NCBI GenBank assembly: GCA_943357895.1
Contig: CALRGO010000004.1
Coordinates: 1-44,190 of the forward strand
Length of the DNA stretch: 44,190 nucleotides
Source of the DNA: Parcubacteria group bacterium
Lineage (GTDB): Bacteria; Patescibacteriota; Minisyncoccia; UBA6257; UBA11618
Direction: 5' to 3'
The notes under the pieces: model-generated
What the model was told of the DNA's origin: nothing
Seen by the model: only the letters and a program-made list of their open reading frames with translations
The model's database searches: none
Translations under genes and position numbers: made by a program
In this document: positions 4,954 to 41,957 of the stretch, piece by piece
Layout of the letters: each line of letters opens with the position of its first letter
How positions within the stretch are numbered: the first letter of the stretch is position 1

Positions 4954-7647
4954 ATGGCAATAATGCAACAGATTGTATGGCATACAAAAACAGTCCCCGA
5001 TGTTCTTGATGTGCTTCATTCGCGGGAGCATGGTCTGACAAAAGAAGAAGCGACCGAGCGGTTTCAAAAATATGGACGAAATTATCTTCCCGAAGGGAAG
5101 GTTGATAGTGTATTCCTTATTTTCTTCCGGCAATTTCAAAGTCCGCTGATTTATATTCTCTTTGCCGCGGCAGGTATTGTTTTTATGATGGGGTCGGCAA
5201 TTGATGCCTTGATTATTTTTATAGTACTTCTTTTTAATGCGATTCTAGGAACATTTCAGGAGGGTAAAGCACAAAACACACTTCTTGCCTTAAAAAAGTT
5301 TACCGAAACTTCCGCTACTGTATTACGCGATGGTATGGAGATTGTAATCGCAGATACCGAGGTACTGCCCGGGGATATTATTGTATTGCAAGAAGGAGAA
5401 AAAGTGCCGGCTGATGCTCGAATTATTTTTGCCAATACTCTGAAAATTGATGAGGCAAGTCTTACGGGAGAATCAGAGCCCGTGACTAAAACCGAGGCAG
5501 TGGTATTAGCCGATAATCTATCGGTTGCAGATCAGAAAAATATGGTATTCAAGGGCACGCTCATTTTGAGTGGAAACGGCAGGGCGGTTGTTGTGGCGAC
5601 AGGATTCACAACAGAGATTGGGAAAATTGCGCAGAAAATATCATCGATTGATACCGAGATTCCCCTGAAAGCTAACATCCGTTATCTCTCTAGAATTATT
5701 GTCGTTACGGTGGCTCTTATCAGTGTCTCATTGATTATTCTCGGCGTGTTTTCCGGTAAATCTCTTAGAGAGATGTTTACCACCGCAGTGGCGCTTTCGG
5801 TCTCAATAATTCCGGAGGGTTTGCCAATTGTAATGACCTTGGTTTTGGCAACGGGCGTTTTTCGAATGTCGAAGCGTAACGTGCTAGTGAAACGACTACA
5901 AGCGGTGGAGGCATTAGGGCAGACAAAAGTTATTGCTGTGGATAAAACGGGGACGCTCACCAGAAACGAGATGGTTATTCAGCGAGTGTATGTGGATGAT
6001 GCAATTTTTAGTATCACCGGTAGTGGATACGAGCCAAAGGGCGAAGTAATTTTTGATGGCAAGGTTATTGACCCCTTACATCATCCCGAGCTGCTTTTTA
6101 GTGGAAGAATTGCGGCATTCTGTGCCAACGCACGACTATCATATTTCCAAGAAACCGGTCTTTGGAAGATTATAGGTGATCCAACCGAGGCGGCGATGGT
6201 GGTGCTTTCTGAAAAAATTGGATTTCGCCACGATACTCTAGAGCAGGAAACACCGAAAGTTTTTGAATTACCGTTTGACTATCAAAAAAAGTATCGCGCT
6301 ACCATTCGAGTAGTTGATGGTAAGAACTTTCTTACTGTCGTTGGCGCGCCAGAGTCAGTACTCTTACTTTGTAAAAATATCTGGCATAAAGATGGAGTCG
6401 AGACTCTAAGTGAAGAAAAGAAAAAAGAATTAGAATCAGTTTTTCATAATCTTGCGCAAAACGGTTTTAGGGTGGTGGCGTATGCCATACATCAAGACAC
6501 CGCCCGAAGCGTTGATGGAGATGCAATACCACCGCTTACTTTTGTCGGTTTTTTTGGTATGAGTGATGCGCTCCGCGGCGAAGTTAAAGAAGCAATGCAA
6601 AGAGTACGAGTGGCGGATATGCGCGTGGTGATGATTACGGGTGATCATCGTCTTACGGCGCAGGCAATTGCCAAAGAGGCAGATATTTGGCGCGAAGGCG
6701 ACAGTGTTCTTACGGGAGAAGAAATAGACAAGATGTCTGATGAGGAGTTGACAGAGAAGCTCGCTAGCACCACAGTCTTTGCGCGAGTCACACCAGATCA
6801 CAAGCTCCGCATCATTCAGGCCTACCGCAAGCGAGGGGAGGTTGTAGCTATGACCGGAGACGGCGTGAATGATGCGCCCTCACTTGTTGCCGCTGACATT
6901 GGTGTCGCCATGGGGAAAATTGGAACAGAGGTAGCAAAGGAAGCCTCAGACATTGTGCTTTTAGATGATAACTTCGCAAGTATAGTTTCAGCGGCTGAAG
7001 AAGGTAGAAGCATTTATAAAACAATTAAGAAAGTCCTTACCTTTCTCTTTTCTACGAGCACTGGCGAGGTAATTAATATCACGGGGGCGCTTATTCTAAA
7101 ATGGCCAATCCCACTCCTTCCGTCTCAGATTATTTGGCTTAATTTTGTTACTGATGGATTTCTGTCGGTAGCACTTGCCATGGAGCCAAAAGAAAAGGGA
7201 CTGATGCAGGGAAAATTTGAGCGACCAAAGAAATGGATTGTGGACGGTTTTATGGTTAAGAGAATGCTCTTGATGGCTCCCGTAATGGGGCTTGGAACAC
7301 TGTATCTTTTCAGTCAATATTTCGAAGTAGATCTTGCGAAGGGGTGGACTATTGCTCTTACCACCATGGCTGTCTTCCAATGGTTTAATGCTTGGAATTG
7401 CAGATCCGAAAGTAAATCTATTTTCCAAATGAATCCTTTTTCTAATATGTATTTAGTGGGTGCAACTGTAATGGTTATATGTTTGCAACTTACTGCAGTT
7501 TATACGCCGTTTTTACAGAAAGTCCTTCATACTGTACCGCTCTCTTTTAATGAGTGGCTCGTTCTTACGTCTGTCGCCACTTCCGTTGTTTTTGTTGAGG
7601 AGATACGTAAATTCTTTTACCGAAGAAAATTGGTAGCATACATATAA
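4954..7647 (+). CDS. P-type cation-transporting ATPase (P2/Ca2+-type-like, E1-E2 family)
   Basis: 897 aa. It carries TGES, the PEGLP transmembrane motif, the phosphorylation site DKTGTLT, and MTGDGVNDAPSL. It is AT-richer than its neighbours. Confidence 0.9.
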   Translation: MAIMQQIVWHTKTVPDVLDVLHSREHGLTKEEATERFQKYGRNYLPEGKVDSVFLIFFRQFQSPLIYILFAAAGIVFMMGSAIDALIIFIVLLFNAILGTFQEGKAQNTLLALKKFTETSATVLRDGMEIVIADTEVLPGDIIVLQEGEKVPADARIIFANTLKIDEASLTGESEPVTKTEAVVLADNLSVADQKNMVFKGTLILSGNGRAVVVATGFTTEIGKIAQKISSIDTEIPLKANIRYLSRIIVVTVALISVSLIILGVFSGKSLREMFTTAVALSVSIIPEGLPIVMTLVLATGVFRMSKRNVLVKRLQAVEALGQTKVIAVDKTGTLTRNEMVIQRVYVDDAIFSITGSGYEPKGEVIFDGKVIDPLHHPELLFSGRIAAFCANARLSYFQETGLWKIIGDPTEAAMVVLSEKIGFRHDTLEQETPKVFELPFDYQKKYRATIRVVDGKNFLTVVGAPESVLLLCKNIWHKDGVETLSEEKKKELESVFHNLAQNGFRVVAYAIHQDTARSVDGDAIPPLTFVGFFGMSDALRGEVKEAMQRVRVADMRVVMITGDHRLTAQAIAKEADIWREGDSVLTGEEIDKMSDEELTEKLASTTVFARVTPDHKLRIIQAYRKRGEVVAMTGDGVNDAPSLVAADIGVAMGKIGTEVAKEASDIVLLDDNFASIVSAAEEGRSIYKTIKKVLTFLFSTSTGEVINITGALILKWPIPLLPSQIIWLNFVTDGFLSVALAMEPKEKGLMQGKFERPKKWIVDGFMVKRMLLMAPVMGLGTLYLFSQYFEVDLAKGWTIALTTMAVFQWFNAWNCRSESKSIFQMNPFSNMYLVGATVMVICLQLTAVYTPFLQKVLHTVPLSFNEWLVLTSVATSVVFVEEIRKFFYRRKLVAYI

Positions 7648-9308: not shown

Positions 9309-11113
9309 TTAGCACAAAGGTCGTCATCATTACGGCATGCCTCGAATGCGTCGATCATTCTTTTTATTTTTAAGCCGTTTTGTAGCTCTTTTTCTATATC
9401 GCGGGTTACCGTTGTGCGGACAATGCCCGTTTCAATGCCTTGCTCGCGAATCCCTTTTAATTTATTAACAATTTTTGTGAGTAGTGTGGCGACGCGCTGA
9501 GATAAGTAGGTGGCTTCCGGCTCTACGGCTTTTACTGCGAGTATCTCTACAGGATCCACTTTTTCTTCTATTATTTTTGGCTCCGGTTCGGTTTCTAGGG
9601 TGAAATTATTTACCCATAATGCGTCGCCTGATATACGAGCCTCATCTATTTTTCCATTAAAGAAGGCGTCTCCTCCTCCGAGCTTTTCAGCTCCACTGAT
9701 ACTCACAGAAGCATTTTTATTAGCAATGCCTTTTGTGTATGCTTTTTTCCCTACTATAATGCCATTTTGAAATACGTACATGGAGGATCCATCATAAACT
9801 CCTGCTACGTGCACCCACGTATTAGATGGTATTGCTGTATCTCCGATTATACTCGTTTCTATTTGTGCGGCATCAGATAGATGTAATGTGAGATGGTTTG
9901 CTTCGTTGATAGTAAGAGCATATGAGCGATTATCTCCCGCCTCGTTCCATTTAGTTATAATTCCTTCTTGTGCAGTTGTGGGTGCTGTGCGATATATCCA
10001 TGCGTCTATAGTGAGAGGCCCAGTAATTCCTAAATTAATTTGTTCGTTGTCGTTAATAAAACGCTTACTATTTCCATTAAATTGAAGAGCTGTATTAAAT
10101 TTACCAGTTACGCTATAAACCGGCGTACCTTTTACTTGTGTTAAGTGGTTACGATTTTCTGATGAATCGATACTAGTGCCCATTGATTCATCGAGATGCC
10201 ACACCCCTCGTAATTTTTCTTTAGGAAGTAAGTCAAAGAGTTTTTCTTCAAGGCTTACGATTTTCGTGCCGTGTTGCGGGTTCCATTTTGCGGCGGCATC
10301 TATGGTCGTCCATGGCATAGGTTCGGCAAGCCACGAGGGGCTTGCTTTTTGGTCTGTCGTAAGGTCGTTGTAGGCAGCCATGATATCCATAATGTCTTTC
10401 AGGCGCTTTGCCGCACCGTCTTTCAGGGGGTTTAAGTAGTCCTCAAGCGACTGCTCTTTGCTTTGGGCGGGTACGTCTTCGAGCGCTTGGTAGAGCATGC
10501 CGATATCTTCTTGCCGTACCGCAGTATCGTTTGTAATGAGGTTGGCAATAAGAGATAGGTCGTTATTACTGCTGTATTTGCCGTTCGTCGCTAAGTACGC
10601 GTAGGTGCAGGCGTTATTGGCATATATACGGATGTTATTATACCAGCCGTATTTTCTGACCGTTTCCCCGTAGCCGGATTTTTCTACGTGCGCGAGGCAT
10701 TGGGATTCGATACGCTGTGCTAATTGCTCGTTCGCGCTTACGCCTCCTATGGCGGCTACGCCACCGGATGATCCGCTACCGGAAGATGGAATAATGCATG
10801 ATGTCCCGTTCCATCCGTATCCCATCTGCGCACACGTTTCTGCGGTGCATGATCCGTTTGGGCAGGTAGTGGACAGTGGCGTGCATGATTGAGTGGTGCT
10901 ATTCCATGTACCACCTTGAGAATTACAAAGCATGGCTTGATATTCGTCACAGGTCATATTGCCCATCATGCACGCTTGAGCAAGATTCGGGTTCGTTCCT
11001 TGCATCATCCTTTGCTTTTGCATTAAGGTATTGCGCGGTTGGATGACGACGACGAGTAAAACAGCAACGGTTGCCGCGAGTAATAACAAATATGAAATGG
11101 CGCGTTCGGTCAT
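9305..11113 (-). CDS. Membrane-anchored surface protein with a Cys-rich N-region and a LamG-like (concanavalin A-like lectin) jelly-roll domain
   Basis: 602 aa with an N-terminal TM helix and a Cys-rich stretch (CMMGNMTCDEY...CPNGSCTAETC). The LamG pattern reads LTIDAWIY...YALTINEANHLTLHLSD...NTWVHVAGVYDGSSMYVFQNG...FFNGKIDEARISGDAL. TAGAAT lies 6 nt upstream of the ATG. Confidence 0.7.
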   Translation of the reverse strand: MTERAISYLLLLAATVAVLLVVVIQPRNTLMQKQRMMQGTNPNLAQACMMGNMTCDEYQAMLCNSQGGTWNSTTQSCTPLSTTCPNGSCTAETCAQMGYGWNGTSCIIPSSGSGSSGGVAAIGGVSANEQLAQRIESQCLAHVEKSGYGETVRKYGWYNNIRIYANNACTYAYLATNGKYSSNNDLSLIANLITNDTAVRQEDIGMLYQALEDVPAQSKEQSLEDYLNPLKDGAAKRLKDIMDIMAAYNDLTTDQKASPSWLAEPMPWTTIDAAAKWNPQHGTKIVSLEEKLFDLLPKEKLRGVWHLDESMGTSIDSSENRNHLTQVKGTPVYSVTGKFNTALQFNGNSKRFINDNEQINLGITGPLTIDAWIYRTAPTTAQEGIITKWNEAGDNRSYALTINEANHLTLHLSDAAQIETSIIGDTAIPSNTWVHVAGVYDGSSMYVFQNGIIVGKKAYTKGIANKNASVSISGAEKLGGGDAFFNGKIDEARISGDALWVNNFTLETEPEPKIIEEKVDPVEILAVKAVEPEATYLSQRVATLLTKIVNKLKGIREQGIETGIVRTTVTRDIEKELQNGLKIKRMIDAFEACRNDDDLCAN

Positions 11114-17469: not shown

Positions 17470-18576
17470 TTAATCGTTGTGTTTTGAAATGTTGTTAATT
17501 ATGCCTAATATCCCCATAAAAACAACGAGGGCGGAGGAGCCGTAGCTTATGAAGGGTAGGGCAATGCCCGTGGAGGGTATAAGGCCGGAAATAGCGCCGA
17601 TATTTACAAACGACTGCACGGCGATAAGCGAACCAAACCCTATAAGTAAAAGGTGGCCGAATCGGTCGCGCGTTTCGTGCGCCACAATGAATATGCGTAC
17701 GACGAGCGCAAGAATAAGCCCCAAGAGCGCCACTGATCCCACAAAGCCCGTCTCCTCCCCCACTACCGCGAATATCGAGTCACCTAAGGGTTCGGGTAAC
17801 GAATTTATTTTAGTCGTTGATTCACCGTAGCCCACGCCCCATATGCCGCCCGCCCCAATTGCCATCTTAGCTTGGCTTACTTGATAGCCACTTCCTTGCG
17901 CGGTGCGTTCGGGGTGCATAAATGCTTCGATGCGCGCCATGCGGTACGGCGCCATCCATATTGCTATAGCAAGTCCTGTGGCGACTATTGCGCCGGTTAG
18001 TATCAGGTGCATCATGCGAGCGCCGCTTACGATATACATTAAGGTTGCAACTACACCAATTAAGAGTGCGGTCGAAGTAGCGGGTTGTTTTAAAAGAAGT
18101 CCCATTGCAATGCCGAGTATTACGAGAAATGCTACAAAGCCTTTATTGGAATGCCGGTCGCGCGCCTTGGGCGAGGTAAGCCATGCGGCAAGATAGAGTA
18201 TAAAAAAAAGTTTAAGAGGTTCGGAAGGTTGGAATGTTAGGGGGCCAATTTGCACCCAGCGTGCAGCACCTTTTGCCGTGAATGCTAAGGGCGTAAGCGT
18301 AAGCCCTAAGAGGAGGATACCAAAAAGCATGCCAATTACGGCTAACTTTTCATACCGCTTATAGTAGATTCCCGAAAGGATAAGAAAAAGGACGGTGCCG
18401 GGGAGCACGCCGTAGAGAAGTTGGTGTGTGACGTAATAAAGCGTGGTGCCGGTTTGCATTTGGCTTAGGTTCGACGAGGCGGATGAAAGCATTGCCATGC
18501 CGAACGTGATAAGTAACACACCAAGCACTATGATGACGTAATCGCTGCCGCGGGATTTAATTATAGATTGGCGCAT
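17470..18576 (-). CDS. ftsW: SEDS-family peptidoglycan polymerase FtsW (RodA also possible)
   Basis: 368 aa polytopic membrane protein with SEDS motifs (PSEPLKLFFILYLA, TDSIFAVVGEETGF, SYGSSALV). Placement beside murG favours FtsW. Confidence 0.85.
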   Translation of the reverse strand: MRQSIIKSRGSDYVIIVLGVLLITFGMAMLSSASSNLSQMQTGTTLYYVTHQLLYGVLPGTVLFLILSGIYYKRYEKLAVIGMLFGILLLGLTLTPLAFTAKGAARWVQIGPLTFQPSEPLKLFFILYLAAWLTSPKARDRHSNKGFVAFLVILGIAMGLLLKQPATSTALLIGVVATLMYIVSGARMMHLILTGAIVATGLAIAIWMAPYRMARIEAFMHPERTAQGSGYQVSQAKMAIGAGGIWGVGYGESTTKINSLPEPLGDSIFAVVGEETGFVGSVALLGLILALVVRIFIVAHETRDRFGHLLLIGFGSLIAVQSFVNIGAISGLIPSTGIALPFISYGSSALVVFMGILGIINNISKHND

Positions 18577-22515: not shown

Positions 22516-23616
22516 ATGGCCGCGCTTTACCGCAAATACCGTCCGCGCGCGTTTCGCGATCTCGTTGGCCAGTCCCAGATTGTTGAGATTTTCCGTAACG
22601 CGGGCCGGCAAGACAAGCTGGCTCACGCATACGTTTTTTACGGTTCGCGTGGTACGGGTAAAACTACCGTTGCCCGCTTAGTGGCAAAGCTCGCTAATTG
22701 TACGGCGCGCGATTTTGTCCACAGGGAAGGTGAGCCATGCAATGCGTGCGCGGCGTGCGCGGCAATCGATGAAGGTCGCGCGATGGATGTTATCGAAATC
22801 GATGCAGCGTCTAACCGCGGTATCGACGAAATCCGCGACTTGCGCGAATCTATTCGCGTCGCTCCGTCTTCTTTCATATATAAGGTGTTTATAATTGACG
22901 AGGCGCACATGTTAACTGGCCCTGCGTGGAACGCCCTTTTAAAGACGCTCGAGGAGCCGCCGCCGCGCACGATTATTATTTTAGCTACGACTGAATACGA
23001 AAAGATTCCGGCGACAATCGCTTCGCGTGCCCAACGTTTTCATTTCCGTAAAATCCCGATGCGTGAGCTCGTGACGAAGCTGAACGATATCGTCGCTCTT
23101 GAGAAATTTACAATAACGCCCGAGGCGGTGGAGCTGATAGCCGCCGCATCCGAAGGCGGCATGCGCGATGCACAGTCCCTACTTGATCAAGCGGCGTCGA
23201 CGGGCGCGTCGGTGGACTTAGCCGTGGTAGAGTCCTTAGTCGGCAAAGTCGGCTTTCGCCGTATCGCGCAGTTTGCGGATGCGGTCGCAAAGGGCGATGC
23301 CTCGGAAGCCCTGCGGGCGTTGCACGAAGTGCGTTCGGTGGGCGGCAACGTGCTCGACGTATGTAAGGAGCTTATCGCCTACCTGCGCCGCGTACTCGCG
23401 CTTCGTACGGACCCGAAGCTCGAAGAGCTTTTTAAAGACGAATTAACAAAAGAAGAATTAGCGGCAACCATAGCCCATAGCAAATCAATCGACCCGTTAC
23501 GCGCTATAGCGCTCCTTAAGGCCCTTATCTCGGGCTACGGCGAAATGCGCTACTCCCCATTCCCCCACATCCCCCTCGAAGTGGCTTTCATTGAGCATTT
23601 GGGCAAATCAAGATAA
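22516..23616 (+). CDS. dnaX: DNA polymerase III subunit gamma/tau (short form)
   Basis: The canonical N-terminus MAALYRKYRPRAFRDLVGQ starts at ATG 22516. It also has GSRGTGKTT, the Zn module C..C..C, and the DEAH-like IIDEAHML. The track start at 22258 runs antisense through the dac gene and is rejected. Confidence 0.9.
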   Translation: MAALYRKYRPRAFRDLVGQSQIVEIFRNAGRQDKLAHAYVFYGSRGTGKTTVARLVAKLANCTARDFVHREGEPCNACAACAAIDEGRAMDVIEIDAASNRGIDEIRDLRESIRVAPSSFIYKVFIIDEAHMLTGPAWNALLKTLEEPPPRTIIILATTEYEKIPATIASRAQRFHFRKIPMRELVTKLNDIVALEKFTITPEAVELIAAASEGGMRDAQSLLDQAASTGASVDLAVVESLVGKVGFRRIAQFADAVAKGDASEALRALHEVRSVGGNVLDVCKELIAYLRRVLALRTDPKLEELFKDELTKEELAATIAHSKSIDPLRAIALLKALISGYGEMRYSPFPHIPLEVAFIEHLGKSR

Positions 23617-23637
23617 GTCAGAAAATTAATAATAAGG

Positions 23638-23685
23638 AATATTCTGTACTTATAACAGCTATAGCTGTTATAAGTACAGAATATT
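23638..23685. repeat. Palindrome copy 1 (48-bp perfect palindrome containing the shared 34-bp core at 23645-23678)
   Basis: AATATTCTGTACTTATAACAGCTA|TAGCTGTTATAAGTACAGAATATT. It lies between convergent dnaX and the PaaX-like gene and overlaps the latter's stop codon. Confidence 0.95.
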
Positions 23686-24235
23686 ACAACCCAAACTTCG
23701 TTTTTAAATCAGATGCGTTATCAATATCCCTCGCGATGATCATGCGCACATACGGACGTATCTGGAAAAGATCGGCTATTAAATTAATCTCATCGGCACA
23801 TTCATAGGGATGTACGAACACGCTTTTTTGAAGCGTGCGTAGTCCGAGGATTTTGAGGCGTGCGGCAAGGGCATCTCTCCCCTTCTTTTTGTGTTCCGGT
23901 ATATCGAACATAACGATATGCCATAATCCATCCCATTTTTTTGGTATTTTGATTTTGATCGCGTCGAGGTTGTAAATTAGCGCCTTTATTTTACCCGATT
24001 TACTAAGTGTTATCGCAATCGTTCCGTCGGCATTATTTATACTACGTATATCTTTGGAGGTACGGAGTCGTTGAACGGCGCGCTCTAGGCTACGTTCGTT
24101 TATGTCTTTCCATTCTTCGATAGCAGCTTTGATTAATTTCCATGAATGCTTCGATTGCGGGTTAAATAATAATATCCCGCCCGTAACGAGTGTTAGTAAT
24201 ATCTTCTGTTCTATAGCGCCATATTTTTCTCTCAT
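23684..24235 (-). CDS. PaaX-family-like transcriptional regulator (wHTH N-domain plus Cas2-like core)
   Basis: Start taken at MREKYGAIEQKILL (ATG 24235); the ORF-track extension merely translates the palindrome. The segment WDGLWHIVMFDIPEHKKKGRDALAARLKILGLRTLQKSVFVHP matches the Cas2-like central domain pattern of PaaX-type repressors, from memory. Confidence 0.55.
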   Translation of the reverse strand: MREKYGAIEQKILLTLVTGGILLFNPQSKHSWKLIKAAIEEWKDINERSLERAVQRLRTSKDIRSINNADGTIAITLSKSGKIKALIYNLDAIKIKIPKKWDGLWHIVMFDIPEHKKKGRDALAARLKILGLRTLQKSVFVHPYECADEINLIADLFQIRPYVRMIIARDIDNASDLKTKFGL

Positions 24236-24243
24236 ATTTCTAT

Positions 24244-24285
24244 TATTTGTACTTATAACAGCTATAGCTGTTATAAGTACAAATA
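24244..24285. repeat. Palindrome copy 2 (42-bp perfect palindrome; 34-bp core at 24248-24281)
   Basis: The core is identical to copy 1. It lies between the divergent PaaX-like gene and tRNA-Gln(UUG), and overlaps the AATAAT hexamer (24242-24247, minus) that sits 6 nt upstream of the regulator ATG. Confidence 0.95.
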
Positions 24286-24333
24286 TAGCACGGTGGTAAA
24301 ATGGGTGAAAATATGGCAGGATAATCACGATAT

Positions 24334-24404
24334 TGCCGGGTCGTCTAATGGTCGGACAGCGGACTTTGAATCCGTCAATCTAGGTTCGATTCCTAGCCTG
24401 GCAA
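24334..24404 (+). tRNA. tRNA-Gln (anticodon UUG)
   Basis: Hand-folded cloverleaf: acceptor TGCCGGG/CCTGGCA, anticodon stem GCGGA/TCCGT with loop CTTTGAA, T-arm CTAGG-TTCGATT-CCTAG. 71 nt, no encoded CCA. Confidence 0.9.
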
Positions 24405-24415
24405 CAAATATAAAT

Positions 24416-24841
24416 ATGGAAAAAATAGCGCGGATCGGTATTGGGGTTTTTGTATTCAGAGACGGGAAATTTTTAATGGGCAAACGGATGGGGTCTCATG
24501 GTGAGGGTAGTTGGTCTGTGCCGGGTGGTCATTTGGAATTTGGCGAATCGTTTGCGGAAACTGCTCGTCGAGAGGTTTTAGAAGAAACCGGAATTACAAT
24601 AAAGAATATTAAATTCGGTGCGGTTACTAACGATTATTTTGAAAAAGAAGGTAGGCATTACGTAACTGTTTGGATGGTTACGGAGCACGATGAGGGCGAA
24701 GCGAAAATAATGGAGCCTGATAAGTTTATCGAGCAGGGCTGGTTTGATTTTACTACTCTACCATCGCCGTTATTTTTGCCATGGACGCAGTTATTACAGT
24801 CTGAATTCATAGAAAATATTAAAAGTTTTTCAAAAAAATAA
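24416..24841 (+). CDS. NUDIX hydrolase
   Basis: The Nudix box GGHLEFGESFAETARREVLEETGI is present. Start taken at ATG 24416, because the track ORF start at 24293 reads through the tRNA. Confidence 0.85.
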   Translation: MEKIARIGIGVFVFRDGKFLMGKRMGSHGEGSWSVPGGHLEFGESFAETARREVLEETGITIKNIKFGAVTNDYFEKEGRHYVTVWMVTEHDEGEAKIMEPDKFIEQGWFDFTTLPSPLFLPWTQLLQSEFIENIKSFSKK

Positions 24842-24845
24842 TAGG

Positions 24846-26699
24846 ATGACCGAAAAAAATTTGAAGACGGAGGGTGTTGATTGGGATCTCACGTGCATGT
24901 ATGCGGGGTTAGAGGATCCGCAGATAGATGTGGATGTGGCGGAGCTCGTGCGAATGGCGGAGAAGTTTAATGGGGCGTATAAGGGAAAGCTGGCTGAGAC
25001 GCTAGGAAAAGCGATTACGGATTACGCCGCGATAAGCATGCTTTCGAATAAGGTGATGGTGTATTTGTATCTTTCGCAGAGCAAGGACACAACGGACGGA
25101 AAGATTAAGGCAAAGATCGCCGACATTGAGCGAATTTTAAACCAGTCGAGTGCTGACCATATGACGTTTTTTACGATCGAGCTTGTCGCCTTGGACGATG
25201 CTGTTTTAGAAAAGTTGTATGTGGTGGACATGGTAGTCGCTACGCACCGGCCGTATATCGAACACACGCGCGTATTCAAGCCTCATTTACTTACGGAGCA
25301 AGTCGAAGCCGCACTTACGCGCCGCGCGTCGTTCGGTGAAGGGGCGTGGAGCGAATTATTCGATGAATTCGAAAGTGATCTACGATTTACGTATAAGGAA
25401 GAAGAAAAAACGCTTACGGAGCTTTTGCATATGATGAGCGACTTGCAGAGTGCCGACGACCGCGCGGAAATCATGCGGGTCATAAACGGCGGACTCGCTG
25501 GATTTTTTGCCAAATATGCCGCGCAGACTTTATATATGAAGGCGGGCGCCCATGCGGTTGAGGTAAAAGACCGTAAGTATATAAACCCGATGGATGGTAT
25601 GAATAAGTCGAACCGCGTTTCGAGCGCAATTGTGGATGCATTGCACGACGCCGTGCGTACGGTCGGGGGTCCCCTTGCTCGCCGATATTACAAGTTAAAG
25701 GCGGCACATTTGGGGATAAAAACGCTCAAGTGGAGCGACCGCAATGCGCCCTTGCCGTTTACGGATACGGCTGTAATCCCCTTCGACGAGGCGTGGGATA
25801 CGGTGCTGGCAGCTTACGAAAGTTTTAGTCCGAAGCTTGCGCAGATTATTCGTGATATGTTGGCGCAGGGCTGTATCGACGCGCACGTGACGCGCGGCAG
25901 GCGGGGCGGCGCTTTTAATTATTCGATAGTGTTGCCGCAGAATATCCCCGCATCGTTTACCTTCCTTAATTATTTAGGGTCGAATCGCGATGTAATGACG
26001 TTGGCCCATGAGCTGGGGCACGGCGTACACGGTATTTTAGGGGGCGAGGCGCAGGGTGCGTTGATGTTCCATGCACCTATCGCTTATTGCGAAACGGCGT
26101 CGGTCTTCGGCGAGATGACTACCTTTAATTTTTTAAAAAGCCGTTTGGAAAAGGAGGGTGACACTAAGCGTGCGGTGGCGCTTATTATGGGGAAGATCGA
26201 CGATGTCTTGAATACCGTCGTGCGGCAAATCAGTTTTTCTAACTTCGAGCGCCGGTTCCACGGCATGGATGCGCAGTATAAAGCATGGGGCGAGCCGAAG
26301 AAACTTTCGGTGGATGAATTAGACGCGCTGTGGACTACAACCACGAAAGAATTATATGGCGAAGAGGGTGATACCTTTACGTACGAGAATATGGAGCACT
26401 TATGGTCGTATATTCCTCACTTCCATTCGTATAGTCCGTTTTATGTATATGGGTATGCGTTTGGCGAATTACTTACGCATAGCTTGTATGCGCAGAAGGA
26501 GCGTTTGGGTGAAAAGTTCGAACCGCTCTATCTCGATATGCTCCGTGCGGGCGGCACGAAGAATGTCACTGAGCTCCTCGCGCCTTTCGGGCTTGATCCC
26601 GCAAACCTGCAGTTCTGGGCGGACGGCATACGGATAAGTATGGGTACAATGATAGACGAAGCGGAAAAGCTTTCGCGGGAGATGGGTGTGCTAGTGTAA
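24846..26699 (+). CDS. pepF: M3 family oligoendopeptidase F
   Basis: 617 aa with zinc motif HELGHGVH and overall M3B layout. Confidence 0.88.
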   Translation: MTEKNLKTEGVDWDLTCMYAGLEDPQIDVDVAELVRMAEKFNGAYKGKLAETLGKAITDYAAISMLSNKVMVYLYLSQSKDTTDGKIKAKIADIERILNQSSADHMTFFTIELVALDDAVLEKLYVVDMVVATHRPYIEHTRVFKPHLLTEQVEAALTRRASFGEGAWSELFDEFESDLRFTYKEEEKTLTELLHMMSDLQSADDRAEIMRVINGGLAGFFAKYAAQTLYMKAGAHAVEVKDRKYINPMDGMNKSNRVSSAIVDALHDAVRTVGGPLARRYYKLKAAHLGIKTLKWSDRNAPLPFTDTAVIPFDEAWDTVLAAYESFSPKLAQIIRDMLAQGCIDAHVTRGRRGGAFNYSIVLPQNIPASFTFLNYLGSNRDVMTLAHELGHGVHGILGGEAQGALMFHAPIAYCETASVFGEMTTFNFLKSRLEKEGDTKRAVALIMGKIDDVLNTVVRQISFSNFERRFHGMDAQYKAWGEPKKLSVDELDALWTTTTKELYGEEGDTFTYENMEHLWSYIPHFHSYSPFYVYGYAFGELLTHSLYAQKERLGEKFEPLYLDMLRAGGTKNVTELLAPFGLDPANLQFWADGIRISMGTMIDEAEKLSREMGVLV

Positions 26700-26744: not shown

Positions 26745-26749
26745 TGTGG

Positions 26750-27075
26750 CACGAAGGTATGCGATAAGCCGAATTCTGTTACGTCTTGCGACGCATAACG
26801 ACCATTTGTCTAAGCGGCACTCCGTATGCTTGCGCATACGGCACGGCCTTGCACCCGAGTAAGGATTTAGCCGTTTCATCTTAGCCTTCAACTGCTAAGC
26901 ACATCCGCATTGCTGCGGATGCCGCAGCTCTTTCGGGCTGTGGCGTTTCTGTTCGCACCTCTCCGTTACCGGTGACGGCTTTTCAACCGCTACTTGTTTA
27001 TACGTGCCTTACGGCGCATATGAGTGTCCGGACTTTCCTCCCCTTACGGAGCGGTCGTCTGGCATACCTCCGTAC
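26750..27075 (-). ncRNA. rnpB: RNase P RNA (bacterial type A-like)
   Basis: The minus strand contains GGAGGAAAGUCCGGAC (P4 5' strand/CR-I) and ACAGAAUUCGGCUUAUC (P4 3' strand/CR-V). A P1 helix pairs CGGAGGUAUGC (27072-27062) with GCAUACCUUCG (26762-26752). GUGCGAACAGAAACGCC and CUUAGACAAAUGGUCG are also present. There is no credible ORF, and ends are approximate. Confidence 0.9.
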
Positions 27076-27082
27076 CGAATCT

Positions 27083-27111
27083 ATAATGACACTAAATTTA
27101 GCGATTGTCGA
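27083..27111 (-). promoter_or_regulatory. Putative promoter of rnpB (TCGACA-N17-CATTAT)
   Basis: On the minus strand, -35 is TCGACA (27111-27106) and -10 is CATTAT (27088-27083). The predicted start near 27076 matches the beginning of the P1 helix. It lies inside the 3' end of rnhA. Confidence 0.4.
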
Positions 27112-27499
27112 GCGTACTGTTTACCAATGCGTCGGCGGCGCTATTTTCTTCGCGTGGGATTTCGATAAAGCGCACGTCTTTGAATTTTTCTATTAGCGCT
27201 TGAGCCTCGTCGCACAGTACTTTAAGGTGCGGTAGCTTAACTTTATATTTACCGGTAATTTGGCGGGCTATCAGTTGGCTGTCGATATGGATATCCAGTT
27301 CCGCTTTTTGTGCTGCTGCGCCGAGGCTTTTCGCGCAGGTTTTGAGTGCTGAAATAACTGCCTTATATTCGGCGACGTTATTCGTCGTCTCGCCAATGTA
27401 TTCGCCGTAGCCTGCGCCGTTAATCACCACGCCTATTGCCGCATGGCCGGGGTTCCCCCGTGCGCCGCCGTCTGTGTAAATTGAAATAATGTCCGTCAT
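27098..27499 (-). CDS. rnhA: Ribonuclease HI-type protein
   Basis: Motifs seen are IYTDGGARGNPG, NNVAEYKAVISAL, DSQLIARQ and EENSAADALVN. Start chosen at ATG 27499 (AAGG upstream, 5 nt after the DHH stop); ATG 27523 is the alternative. Confidence 0.8.
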   Translation of the reverse strand: MTDIISIYTDGGARGNPGHAAIGVVINGAGYGEYIGETTNNVAEYKAVISALKTCAKSLGAAAQKAELDIHIDSQLIARQITGKYKVKLPHLKVLCDEAQALIEKFKDVRFIEIPREENSAADALVNSTLDNR

Positions 27500-27504
27500 G
27501 AGCC

Positions 27505-28338
27505 TTAGGATAACACCTTCCACGGCACCGGCGTGCCGTGCGGGATACTAAACCCCGCAGCTGACTTATGCCCCCCGCCGCCATAGTGCATAGCGAGCGC
27601 CGCTACGTCGAAGTGGCCGTTAGATCGAAGTGAAACGACCGTCTTGCCCTTACGTTCGTCCCAGATGATGCCAAAGGGCGGAAAGGCGGTACACAGCGCA
27701 TGGCCGATGTTATCGCGGAAGAACGGTGAGTTTACTGCAAGCGCCTTATGGCCGCGTAGTTCTACAAACTCCGCGTTTTCGCGTACGAGTCGGTCTACTA
27801 ACTTCATTTCTTGATCAAGAAGTAAGTTTCCTTTTTCAAAACATTTTTTTCTGCCTGCGGCAGTCGCGATTTCTTTTTCAAGTTTATTCCATGTTTTAAA
27901 ATCGAACGGCACGGTGCGCAGGTATGCCGTCATAGCCTTCGATTGCGGGAGCTTGTGGCGCCATAAGTCATTATCTTCAACGTATTTAAGGAATAACGGT
28001 ACTTTCTTTTTGGGGTGGAAATACTGCCATGCGATTACTGATCCCGAACGGTTATTATCAAAAACGCCGCCCTCTGTGCGCAGTACGTCTGCTTCGCACA
28101 TAGCGTGGTGGTCGAGCGCTGTTACGCGCTTCGCCCGTTTTAAAAGTTCATCCATCGTGTCTACTCGGTAGCAAAAATCAACGAGATACACCTCCTTACC
28201 CTCTAATCCTTCCGGCAATGCCTCTTGGTGCATGACGGGGATATAGTCGGCTTTTTTGCCGAACGTGAGCCATGTCGCCCATGCGGCGCTAAAGCCATCC
28301 GTGCAGTTCTTGTGGTATAAAACGACGGTATTTTTCAT
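27505..28338 (-). CDS. DHH/DHHA1 family phosphoesterase (stand-alone, NrnA/Pde2-like class)
   Basis: Motifs seen are HKNCTDG (motif I), LVDF (motif II), LDHH (motif III) and GGGGHKSAAGF (DHHA1). Confidence 0.8.
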   Translation of the reverse strand: MKNTVVLYHKNCTDGFSAAWATWLTFGKKADYIPVMHQEALPEGLEGKEVYLVDFCYRVDTMDELLKRAKRVTALDHHAMCEADVLRTEGGVFDNNRSGSVIAWQYFHPKKKVPLFLKYVEDNDLWRHKLPQSKAMTAYLRTVPFDFKTWNKLEKEIATAAGRKKCFEKGNLLLDQEMKLVDRLVRENAEFVELRGHKALAVNSPFFRDNIGHALCTAFPPFGIIWDERKGKTVVSLRSNGHFDVAALAMHYGGGGHKSAAGFSIPHGTPVPWKVLS

Positions 28339-28375: not shown

Positions 28376-28409
28376 TGTACTTATAACAGCTATAGCTGTT
28401 ATAAGTACA
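28376..28409. repeat. Palindrome copy 3 (34-bp core only)
   Basis: Identical to the cores at 23645 and 24248. It starts 1 nt after the pgk stop codon and ends 2 nt upstream of a TTGAAT -35-like hexamer for the DHH gene. Confidence 0.95.
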
Positions 28410-30712: not shown

Positions 30713-30991
30713 ATGGCACATACAAAATCCTTAGGTTCAACTAAATTAGGCCGTGATTCAGCCGCGCAGCGGCTGGGCGTCAAGAAAAACCACAACGAGC
30801 CTATCGGCGCGGGTGAAATTATCATCCGCCAGCGGGGCAGTAAGTACTTGGCGGGCGTAAACGTCCGTGTGGGCAGCGACGACACGCTTTACGCCGCAAC
30901 TGCCGGCATCGTGCAGTACAAGACGAAGCATAAGACTTGCTTTGATGGATCGCGCCGTAGCGCGAAGATGGTGAGCGTAGTAGTTAAATAA
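30713..30991 (+). CDS. rpmA: 50S ribosomal protein L27
   Basis: MAHTKSLGSTKLGRDSAAQRLGVKK...IIIRQRGSKY..G.NV..G.DDTLYA is the canonical L27 pattern. Confidence 0.95.
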   Translation: MAHTKSLGSTKLGRDSAAQRLGVKKNHNEPIGAGEIIIRQRGSKYLAGVNVRVGSDDTLYAATAGIVQYKTKHKTCFDGSRRSAKMVSVVVK

Positions 30992-30997
30992 TGCAAT

Positions 30998-31029
30998 AAC
31001 AAAAACCGCCCGTACGGGCGGTTTTTGTT
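30998..31029. terminator. Bidirectional terminator between rpmA and P3
   Basis: AACAAAAACCGCCCGTACGGGCGGTTTTTGTT is a perfect GC-rich palindrome (31006-31021) flanked by A- and T-runs. Confidence 0.75.
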
Positions 31030-38011: not shown

Positions 38012-38082
38012 TGCCGGATCATCTAGTGGTAGGATAGCGGACTCTGAATCCGTTCACCTTGGTTCGAATCCAAGTCCGGCAA
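38012..38082 (+). tRNA. tRNA-Gln (anticodon CUG)
   Basis: Acceptor TGCCGGA/TCCGGCA, anticodon stem GCGGA/TCCGT with loop CTCTGAA, T-arm CTTGG-TTCGAAT-CCAAG. 71 nt. Confidence 0.9.
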
Positions 38083-38100
38083 CTAAGTTTTTCATTATAA

Positions 38101-38253
38101 TGCCGGACTTGGATTCGAACCGAAAAGGGGGTCGGGGAAAAAGTTTAAGGTTTTCCCCGTGTAGGAAATTAGGCCTTTTTAGGCCGTGAGAAACCGAGGG
38201 TTTCTCAGGAGGAGGTTATTAAACCGACGACGTTCGGCTGCCAGTCCGGCAAC
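38101..38253. other. Structured element built from tRNA-Gln end sequences (candidate ncRNA or insertion scar)
   Basis: 38101-38121 is the exact reverse complement of tRNA positions 38061-38081. AGTCCGGCAAC at 38243-38253 repeats 38073-38083. A 9-bp closing stem pairs 38101-38109 with 38243-38251. Internal hairpins lie at 38133-38159, 38172-38185 and 38187-38207, followed by AGGAGGAGG at 38207-38215. Confidence 0.5.
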
Positions 38254-38254
38254 A

Positions 38255-38269
38255 AACTCTTTTCTTTTC
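38255..38269 (+). repeat. 15-nt direct repeat AACTCTTTTCTTTTC, right copy
   Basis: Identical to 37945-37959. Confidence 0.9.
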
Positions 38270-41076: not shown

Positions 41077-41106
41077 CAAAAAACTCCCCGTACGGGGAGT
41101 TTTTTG
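41077..41106. terminator. Bidirectional terminator
   Basis: AAAAAACTCCCCGTACGGGGAGTTTTTT contains a perfect palindrome at 41084-41099. Confidence 0.75.
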
Positions 41107-41114
41107 TTGCGCAT

Positions 41115-41957
41115 TTATTCGTGGCCGCCTTTACCGTGGCCGCCTGCCACGCCTTGGATTGCTGGTACGACGAAGTCGAACGTACGCACTATTCCCTTTT
41201 GATTAATTTCTAAAAATATTTTGTAGTCACCGCCAAACGGGAAGGTTGTTCCAAGTGTTATGGTTCCCGTTTGGTGTGACCCGATGCCGTGGGTATGGAC
41301 GTATTCTAACGTGCCGTTACGGATAATTACCGCATGCGCCATGGCGCCTAAGTAGGGCTCGAGGTCTGTAATAAGGCGCCCGCCCTGTTTCACTTCAAAC
41401 GAGAGTGTTGTCATTTCGCCAGACCGGACTTCTGTTGGGTTGGTAGTGAGCGTAACCGTATATCCTTCGGCCTCATACTTCGCCTTAGGCATAAGGCGCT
41501 CCATTGCCGGATATGCCAATTCGTCCCCCACGGGCATGTCTTCGTGTATAACGGTATTCCCCTCGCCTTCGGGCGTAAAGTCGGCGAATATGCGGTATTC
41601 CCCATCACTTTTAAACGTTGCGTCCGCACGGGTAAACTCCCCTGTTTGTTTATTAAACGTGGGGTGTAGGTGTTGGAACAACCCTAAGTCTTTGCGGACG
41701 ACGATAAGGTGTAAGAGTTTTTCATGGGCGGTTATGAAATTCGTAACAACCTTTCCTTTTGTATTAAATATGGTGAAGGTGTATGCATCAGCCTTATTTG
41801 GCTCGCGCTCGATCATATTCTTATTTGAAGAGATGCAATATTTCGCGCCGTTTTGCGGCACGCAGGTAGGTACATCTTTCCCTTTTTTAATTATCGCGGC
41901 CGCTCCCCAGCCGATAACGGCGACGAGCACTACTATGCCGATATATTTCATTTTCAT
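41115..41957 (-). CDS. Membrane-anchored secreted protein with His-rich C-terminal tail (putative metal-binding), family unknown
   Basis: 280 aa with an N-terminal TM helix. It shows HEKLLHLIVVRKDLGLFQHLHP...GEYRIFADFTP and ends GGHGKGGHE. Confidence 0.45.
   Translation of the reverse strand: MKMKYIGIVVLVAVIGWGAAAIIKKGKDVPTCVPQNGAKYCISSNKNMIEREPNKADAYTFTIFNTKGKVVTNFITAHEKLLHLIVVRKDLGLFQHLHPTFNKQTGEFTRADATFKSDGEYRIFADFTPEGEGNTVIHEDMPVGDELAYPAMERLMPKAKYEAEGYTVTLTTNPTEVRSGEMTTLSFEVKQGGRLITDLEPYLGAMAHAVIIRNGTLEYVHTHGIGSHQTGTITLGTTFPFGGDYKIFLEINQKGIVRTFDFVVPAIQGVAGGHGKGGHE

Follow-up and report, generated by a model that had tools for sequence, protein, structure and literature searches.

A short PaaX-like protein of Candidate Phyla Radiation bacteria is encoded between two copies of a palindrome that may be its operator

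We analysed a 44,190-nt stretch of a Parcubacteria group genome (contig CALRGO010000004.1 of assembly GCA_943357895.1, positions 1 to 44,190), referred to below as the window, in which the gene for a 183-aa regulator is bracketed by two copies of a perfect 34-bp palindrome, TGTACTTATAACAGCTATAGCTGTTATAAGTACA. The protein joins a winged helix to a Cas2-like domain of the type found in the PaaX repressor, and we call it mini-PaaX. The same bracket recurs around homologous genes, and we consider it moderately probable that the palindrome forms the cognate operator pair of an autorepressing mini-PaaX, with the 3' copy doubling as a terminator or roadblock. To our knowledge, almost nothing is known about transcription control in the Candidate Phyla Radiation (CPR)/Patescibacteria, and the finding gives a concrete candidate protein-site pair from this group. 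The features of the locus on which the argument rests are the following.

22516-23616, plus strand: dnaX, encoding 366 aa (ATG at 22516) and convergent with the regulator gene, its 3' end facing the downstream palindrome copy.
23638-23685, no strand: downstream copy (D, copy 1), a perfect 48-bp palindrome around the 34-mer at 23645-23678.
23684-24235, minus strand: mini-PaaX regulator gene, an open reading frame of 183 aa whose start codon is consistent with those of orthologues.
24242-24247, minus strand: AATAAT, a -10-like hexamer 6 nt before the regulator ATG, adjoining the 34-mer in the order palindrome-AATAAT-AGAAAT-ATG.
24244-24285, no strand: upstream copy (U, copy 2), a perfect 42-bp palindrome around the 34-mer at 24248-24281.
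24282-24290, minus strand: TGcTATATT, an extended -10 element found by a promoter scan, adjoining the distal edge of U and directed at the regulator gene.
24334-24405, plus strand: tRNA-Gln(UUG), predicted by ARAGORN, divergent from the regulator gene, with U in their common intergenic region.
28376-28409, no strand: third copy of the 34-mer, between pgk (stop codon 1 nt away) and a DHH/DHHA1 phosphoesterase gene (ATG 37 nt away).

All three copies of the 34-mer are free of mismatches. The number expected by chance is zero, and no match appeared across 100 dinucleotide-preserving shuffles. No site with 1 to 7 mismatches from the 24-nt core of the palindrome occurs in the 44-kb window; the copies are all-or-none. 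The D copy shares 2 nt with the regulator stop codon (23684-23686) and lies between the regulator gene and convergent dnaX. GC content is 0.39-0.43 across 23600-24900, compared with 0.50-0.60 in dnaX and 0.47-0.54 in pepF. An earlier interpretation made from the letters alone (the sequence-only reading) had described three exact copies, the extension of copy 1 to 48 bp over the regulator stop and facing dnaX, the extension of copy 2 to 42 bp, an AATAAT hexamer 6 nt from the ATG at 24235, tRNA-Gln(UUG) beyond copy 2 and an AT-rich islet, and our coordinates, the ARAGORN prediction and the GC values agree with it on every one of these points.

The 183-aa protein matched Pfam PF20803 (PaaX_M, the PaaX central Cas2-like domain) over residues 99-173 with an E value of 4.7e-21 (75.1 bits against a cutoff of 24), and this domain is preceded by a winged helix at approximately residues 1-92. 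PF07848, the PaaX-type winged helix, had no match in the protein at E <= 1, and PF08223, the PaaX C-terminal effector domain, also had none; the chain stops at residue 183, straight after the Cas2-like domain. The match to Pfam Cas2 was weak, the NCBIfam cas2 model TIGR01573 just passed its cutoff (27.8 bits, cutoff 24.5), and PADLOC Cas2 models matched with E values down to 5.8e-7. The PaaX equivalog model TIGR02277 fell far short (23.3 bits against a cutoff of 264.55). An AlphaFold2 model (predicted local distance difference test score 79.8) has three helices and a wing, a linker helix, and a C-terminal domain of beta-alpha-beta-beta-alpha-beta topology. When this model was compared with the PDB using Foldseek, E. 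coli PaaX (8a39, E 3.4e-5, over the whole chain) and Rv0674 (3kfw) ranked first, followed by RosR, PadR and YodB on the N-terminal part and several Cas2 structures on the C-terminal part; sequence searches of the PDB returned weak Cas2 and MarR/SlyA matches. The sequence-only reading had proposed a winged helix with a Cas2-like core of PaaX type from a motif, WHIVMFDIPEHKKKGRDALAARLKILGLRTLQKSVF, that is indeed present in the protein. This assignment is supported by the PaaX_M match, the model and the Foldseek ranking; the central domain is matched by its PaaX profile, and the N-terminal winged helix is read from the model and the Foldseek alignments.

Invariant residues concentrate in the Cas2-like domain (W101, D102, F110, D111, P113, R120, Q136-V139 and P143). 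D111, which is invariant in a 45-sequence alignment, aligns with the catalytic Asp of SSO8090, a Sulfolobus Cas2, and the FDIP and QKSVF segments of the regulator align with YDV and QRSAF of Sulfolobus Cas2. The single full-length annotated PaaX-family protein that we compared has VTVP and ATGLY in place of FDIP and QKSVF. No paa genes lie near the regulator gene, the neighbours of which are dnaX, tRNA-Gln, a NUDIX gene, pepF, pgk and mraY. The genes with Pfam labels in the 10 kb to each side included neither cas1 nor any other cas gene, and a repeat search of the 44-kb window returned no CRISPR array. Judged by these sequence criteria, the 183-aa protein is not a true PaaX, as it is without PaaX_C, fails TIGR02277, has no paa linkage and keeps the Cas2 motifs.

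A word index returned 91 homologues, all but two of which (truncated or unrelated entries) contain PF20803, with family members of 172-204 aa compared with 305 aa for the 8a39 chain. In a wider search the family comprised 2,885 clusters at 50% identity at E <= 1e-3 and 1,419 at E <= 1e-10, nearly all of 170-210 aa, and its named members come from metagenome-assembled genomes (MAGs) of Patescibacteria/CPR. A full-text literature search found nothing on short PaaX-like proteins or flanking palindromes in CPR. Mini-PaaX is a large, uncharacterised CPR protein family that stands between Cas2 and PaaX, with the architecture of the latter and the catalytic motifs of the former. It could show how a nuclease fold came to serve as the dimerisation core of a repressor, or it could reveal a DNA-guided Cas2-like enzyme.

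We surveyed 84 homologous loci (designated by L numbers below), including 80 further loci fetched at 40-53% identity, and scored at each the best self-complementary 24-mer pair common to the upstream and downstream flanks. A palindrome bracket was present by strict criteria at 57 of the 84 loci, and a recognisable centre lay both before the ATG and after the stop codon at 72 (68 distinct), compared with 0 of 155 control genes from the same loci; the family loci outscored the best control gene in 65 of 84 cases. The distance from the U centre to the ATG had a median of 47 nt (interquartile range 30-55) and that from the stop codon to the D centre a median of 37 nt (interquartile range 25-54), with the two centres 603-821 bp apart. 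The D copy lies just after the stop codon whichever way the neighbour points (27 convergent, 26 co-directional), and the upstream neighbour was co-directional at 35 loci and divergent at 15. Because neighbour orientation is mixed and the layout constant, the palindrome pair belongs to the regulator gene and not to its neighbours. The palindrome-gene-palindrome layout is thus a family trait, not a local oddity, and the link between palindrome and regulator suggested in the sequence-only reading is upheld by the co-variation of bracket and gene. As a general rule, each family member has one copy of a palindrome of its own at the promoter, which is mostly of leaderless type, and another copy just beyond the stop codon. 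The sequence of the palindrome differs between members: a homologue at 48% identity, on a 695-kb contig, is bracketed by another palindrome of 42-44 bp with wholly different arms.

Within the close clade the site and the protein could be followed step by step. The exact 34-mer lies on both sides of orthologues 83% and 79% identical to the regulator, in the same dnaX-gene-tRNA-Gln setting, and a 73%-identical orthologue has the exact 34-mer upstream and a variant downstream. In orthologues 76% and 70% identical, the inner AACA/TGTT is changed to TCCC/GGGA in all four half-sites, and a 66%-identical orthologue has an imperfect version of the palindrome. The dnaX-gene-tRNA-Gln order is kept down to 66% identity in every close-clade lineage with enough flanking sequence, and tRNA-Gln is beside the U copy in every such lineage scanned for tRNAs. 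This co-varying series of proteins and palindromes is material for studying how DNA-recognition specificity evolves. We compared the window with L099, a gap-free ENA contig of the relative with the 79%-identical regulator. The two bracketing palindromes agree at all 68 bases, and the pgk-DHH DNA is 80.6% identical. Amino acid identity is 79% for the regulator, 94% for DnaX, 93% for MraY and RNase H, 90% for DHH and 87% for PepF; between these two contigs the regulator has diverged faster than most of its neighbours (79% versus 87-94%). As judged from this comparison, the 68 unchanged bases are a mark of strong purifying selection, or of homogenisation.

A logo pooled from 272 half-sites defined the anatomy of the site. 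The centre has the consensus R-C-K-A|T-M-G-Y (for example GCTATAGC, GCGATCGC, GCGATAGC and GCGACCGC), with C at position -3 in 100% of half-sites, A at -1 in 89%, G or T at -2 and G or A at -4. Positions -5 to -7 are without constraint. A/T patches at -8 to -12 and -17 to -21, approximately 10 bp apart, enclose positions -13 to -16, where the bases are specific to the lineage, and symmetry weakens past approximately position 21, giving a site span of about 42 bp. The spacing of the A/T patches fits a protein-bound face of duplex DNA, as far as can be read from the logo. Non-palindromic centres (GATA, GACC and TGGA) also occur, in both relative orientations. The E. coli PaaX operator, TGATTC-N27-GAATCA, has a similar span of 39 bp, and PaaX represses its own promoter (PMC9493321). 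Unlike that operator, the mini-PaaX palindrome is continuous and perfect, with a conserved centre, and has a second copy past the stop codon. Two other identities for the site were dropped: a replication origin with DnaA boxes, as the arms are unlike the DnaA box, and Dam sites, as CTATAG centres are without GATC.

At 51 of 69 family loci, the sense strand has a -10-like hexamer +10 to +45 from the centre of the U palindrome; for the D palindrome the figure is 26 of 69 (Fisher p 3e-5). The distance from the end of the hexamer to the ATG has a sharp peak at 6-8 nt (24 of the 51 loci), the spacing of leaderless mRNAs, and the family genes are probably transcribed in this form. The U palindrome would then cover the -35/spacer region in most family members and, because it lies upstream of the start and outside the mRNA, would have to act as DNA in most loci. 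In the window, the 34-mer spans -13 to -46 if the AATAAT promoter is used, and the start falls inside the palindrome if TGcTATATT is used; both arrangements place the U copy in a predicted repressive position. TGcTATATT is found at the same place in L007, L100 and L101, and some of those relatives are without the proximal -10. The placement of copy 2 at the core promoter, already suggested in the sequence-only reading, agrees with both the promoter scan and the family-wide position of the hexamer. L085 has tandem upstream palindromes (at approximately 2051 and 2105), an arrangement that appears operator-like by analogy, as operators are often paired.

From sequence conservation, family-wide co-occurrence and co-variation, promoter overlap and the protein fold, we infer DNA binding, repression and a role for the downstream copy along the following lines. 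Mini-PaaX would be a winged helix fused to a Cas2-like dimerisation domain, without an effector-binding C-terminal domain, and its dimer would bind a site of approximately 40 bp. Conserved parts of the protein would read the invariant centre, the A/T-rich patches approximately 10 and 20 bp from the dyad would face the protein, and the arms would give lineage-specific specificity. Bound to U over the core promoter, the protein would shut off its own transcription with either -10. The D copy would be a second site for the same protein and, once transcribed, would fold into a long hairpin that terminates or stabilises the mRNA. Protein on D could also block incoming convergent transcription or loop to the U copy, and 3'-end protection is another possible role.

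Comparison with known systems places these proposals in context. The PaaX proteins of E. coli and Pseudomonas (PF07848 + PF20803 + PF08223; 8a39), repressors that respond to phenylacetyl-CoA, share with mini-PaaX a winged helix-turn-helix (wHTH) followed by a Cas2-like central domain, 8a39 is the best structural match in the PDB, and the span of the two binding sites is alike; mini-PaaX is approximately 120 residues shorter, with no effector domain and no paa genes nearby. Cas2 and VapD-type ferredoxin-fold nucleases resemble its C-terminal domain, including the catalytic Asp in a sequence alignment. Mini-PaaX differs from Cas2 in its fusion to a wHTH, in the absence of cas1 or a CRISPR array nearby and in having palindromes approximately 600 bp apart around its gene. 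GalR, LacI and DeoR are repressors with paired operators that loop DNA. Mini-PaaX likewise has a promoter site and an identical one some hundreds of bp away, but the latter invariably follows the stop codon closely and the spacing is without helical phasing. Lrp/AsnC proteins have an N-terminal (w)HTH followed by a C-terminal domain of about 80 residues with beta-alpha-beta-beta-alpha-beta topology and are commonly autoregulated. Mini-PaaX follows the same plan but has no sequence or profile match to them, its C-terminal domain being of Cas2/PaaX_M type.

Several observations weigh against the proposed operator pair. The sequence-only reading had also favoured an operator, and this fits the U copy, but promoter logic does not explain the D copy, which in half of the loci has a convergent neighbour and therefore no promoter to control. 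The non-Watson-Crick positions of D copies comprise 84 sense-strand G:T and 46 A:C (binomial p 0.001), and in L101 a mirror-image double change (T>C / A>G) that preserves the pairing is confined to D; together these point to selection for an RNA hairpin rather than for protein contacts. The U-D distance shows no 10-11 bp periodicity, which lends looping no positive support while leaving room for it. A regulon was not found, and it is hard to see what a regulator gains from strong sites at its own gene only. Over the 72 loci, the mutual information of protein columns with half-site positions gave no prominence to the recognition helix. Conservation within the protein is highest in the Cas2-like domain, which keeps the Cas2 catalytic Asp and QKSVF, and for this reason the regulator may have functions beyond DNA binding. 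Finally, the perfect symmetry over 34-48 bp, the identical half-sites and the concerted AACA to TCCC switch exceed the usual drift of operators and hint at a copying or hairpin-based process.

Protein-DNA covariation was rejected as evidence for the helix in either direction, since the signal is dominated by fast-evolving residues and phylogeny and is uninformative. By eye, S49 versus G49, at the start of helix 3, is the sole residue that tracks the AACA and TCCC types (n = 3 types).

The first alternative to be weighed is that the palindromes are insulating terminators or mRNA-end stabilisers unbound by the encoded protein, their likeness being due to duplication and gene conversion. We regard this as unlikely. 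The palindromes form long stable hairpins of -27 to -32 kcal/mol, and that of the D copy in the window (-31 to -32 kcal/mol) has convergent genes on its two sides and, on the strand of the regulator gene, a T-rich stretch after it. Compared with U copies, D copies have slightly more T after them (p 0.005) and more A before them (p 0.012), in line with the G:T excess and the L101 double change described above, and the palindromes of some relatives, for example TCAAAAAATCCCGCGATCGCGGGATTTTTTGA of L077, resemble textbook bidirectional terminators. These signs do not extend to the U copies, where 60 G:T and 56 A:C positions show no bias and where the palindrome is upstream of the -10, and not in the mRNA, at most loci. 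The bracket is confined to the gene family (absent from the 155 controls), and its centre is invariant across a family of 1,419 clusters, which a generic terminator would not need.

The ordinary bidirectional terminators of the genome, as found in the window, look different. They are short GC-rich stems with A5/T5 tracts, at 30990-31026 (AAAAACCGCCCGTACGGGCGGTTTTT, between convergent rpmA and a 299-aa gene) and 41079-41115 (AAAAACTCCCCGTACGGGGAGTTTTTT, at a gene 3' end), and have a common centre, CCGTACGG; the stem of the 34-mer, unlike these, is AT-rich and on most sides without a T tract. By terminator criteria, copy 1 is a loose fit for the strand of the regulator gene, copy 2 lies where a gene begins, and the T run of copy 3 is on the non-coding strand, the wrong one for pgk. 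An Rfam search with the hairpins returned only spurious matches resembling miRNA precursors. We therefore favour, on sequence grounds, a D copy that would both bind the protein, as a second site, and fold within the transcript, and not an ordinary terminator.

The third copy bears on a second alternative. It is present in L002, a MAG contig of the same species, and missing in L099, in which the pgk stop codon and the DHH ATG are 21 nt apart. A perfect copy has thus been acquired recently, and a copy-and-paste event of some sort is implied; comparison with L099 reveals no target-site duplication flanking it. Its centre is approximately 54 nt before the DHH ATG, just upstream of a TATAAG hexamer 6 nt from that ATG, so that the third copy would sit beside the DHH promoter and not over it. 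The sequence-only reading had suggested a remote target of the regulator. The third copy does lie upstream of the DHH gene, but it is a lineage-specific gain and the promoter is not covered. Under the operator proposal, this recent duplicate could couple the following genes to the regulator.

27505-28338, minus strand: DHH/DHHA1 phosphoesterase gene, identified from its open reading frame and the Pfam labels of the identical contig L002; the possible remote target.
27098-27523, minus strand: RNase H gene, after the DHH gene on the same strand.
26749-27071, minus strand: RNase P RNA (RF00010), matched end to end by Rfam (E 5e-17, 60.4 bits against a gathering score of 100 bits).

The last of these is probably a reduced, CPR-type RNase P RNA. 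In the NCBI MAG contig CAYTBX010000007.1, a 100-N scaffold gap falls at the pgk-DHH junction (L001 1148-1247, L098 5701-5800) and creates a false overlap of the two genes; the ENA contig L099, from the same population, is free of this gap.

Extra copies of the palindrome were found in 2 of 29 long loci (345 kb of flanks), the window and L079. In L079 the third copy (5632-5655) lies approximately 250 bp upstream of U, at the end of the preceding gene. Among GTDB species representatives (approximately 185,000), one genome, on one contig, contained the 34-mer, in just the two bracketing copies. The 24-nt core was absent from IMG/VR, in which two contigs carry relatives of the protein. The regulator protein was absent from phage records, and the plasmid collection contained a single distant true PaaX, on an Arthrobacter plasmid.

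There is a small chance that palindrome, gene and palindrome together form a self-maintaining genetic element of a new kind, in which the winged helix guides an active Cas2-type nuclease to palindrome hairpins or cruciforms. Such an element would nick or process the palindromes, keep the four half-sites identical and occasionally seed copies such as the third. If true, it would be a Cas2-based counterpart of RAYT/REP (repetitive extragenic palindromic) systems, or else the missing intermediate that connects the nucleases of Cas2 type with the PaaX repressors. Cast more specifically as a selfish or nuclease cassette like a REPtron (RAYT + REP), with the wHTH directing the Cas2-like domain to hairpins or cruciforms that it nicks, homogenises and copies, we think the idea rather doubtful. 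The modules are self-contained and occur in unrelated genomic contexts with random neighbour orientation, the four half-sites switched together, and some copies have palindromic extensions of their own (48, 42 and up to 60 bp). The window lineage gained a perfect new copy after its split from L099, and weaker palindrome sites are absent. At 35 of 35 loci of at least 6 kb (for example L031, L036 and L063) the regulator gene exceeds its flanks in AT content (on average 7.5% lower in GC), and it evolves faster than most neighbours. The invariant residues D111, Q136, K137, S138 and V139 align with Cas2 motifs not found in the true PaaX-family protein (n = 1).

A stable locus position within the close clade, down to 66% identity, speaks against a mobile cassette, including an insertion sequence or MITE, as do the minimal copy number, the absence of a visible target-site duplication at copy 3 and the near absence of the family from phage, plasmid and viral collections. 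A Pfam scan of the 183-aa protein revealed no PF01797, HUH/Y1 or other transposase motif. In family loci, self-pairing within each copy is barely above cross-pairing of U-left with D-right, and copy-specific compensatory evolution was accordingly dropped as a general rule, with isolated striking cases in L041, L061, L052 and L101. The likeness to REPtrons lies in a single-copy gene between co-varying palindromes with occasional extra copies; the mini-PaaX module differs in having no Y1/HUH domain and 2-3 copies rather than tens to hundreds.

A genuine REPtron-like system was present in another CPR contig, L016, where a Y1_Tnp gene (PF01797, RAYT-like, 5315-6034) lies amid many TATGGAGGTTSAACCTCCATA palindromes (5135-6774, 10892-10912 and 18277-18307), beside Avd and Laminin_G genes resembling those of diversity-generating retroelements.

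Post-transcriptional autoregulation, with the protein binding hairpins of its own mRNA (5' leader and 3' end) through a Cas2 domain resembling an RNA recognition motif, seems to us improbable. If TGcTATATT at the distal U edge is used, most of the palindrome could be 5' leader in the window clade, and the tolerated GATA, GACC and TGGA centres could be read as loops of 4 nt with the invariant C-G pair closing them; relatives of Cas2 include RNases, PDB entry 3exc being titled as one. At most loci, however, the best -10 is downstream of U with leaderless spacing, which puts U outside the transcript, and the U copies are without wobble bias. The 10-bp A/T periodicity fits a DNA duplex, and the PaaX precedent is one of DNA binding.

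Because extra copies are rare, we exclude a dispersed repeat of REP type, found near the regulator by chance: this alternative, offered in the sequence-only reading and consistent with three identical intergenic copies, two of them beside gene 3' ends, is close to refuted by the single GTDB representative with just two bracketing copies, by the few and never degenerate copies in 44 kb and by the recurrence of the bracket across the family with different sequences.

Other observations concern the surroundings of the regulator gene and its relatives. Past tRNA-Gln(UUG), the gene at 24416-24841 varies among relatives: it encodes a NUDIX hydrolase in the window, a YecM-like protein in L098/L099 (L099 3705-4208), PNPOx in L100 (481-915) and small proteins of unknown kind in L009-L011 (L009 377-1175), with dnaX, the regulator gene and the tRNA constant. 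This stretch looks like a tRNA-adjacent variable spot. Elsewhere in the window, the last 21 nt of tRNA-Gln(CUG) (38012-38083) recur after it in perfect inverted form at 38101-38121, and a partial direct copy lies at 38232-38262; this arrangement could be the remnant of integration or recombination at the tRNA 3' end. In L014 (13698-13739; L015 13696-13737), an unrelated near-perfect palindrome of 42 bp, ATGTCCTCAATTTACCCACATATGTGGTTAAATTGAGGACAT, lies 3 kb from the regulator gene and has only the outer TCAATTT in common with the regulator's own palindrome.

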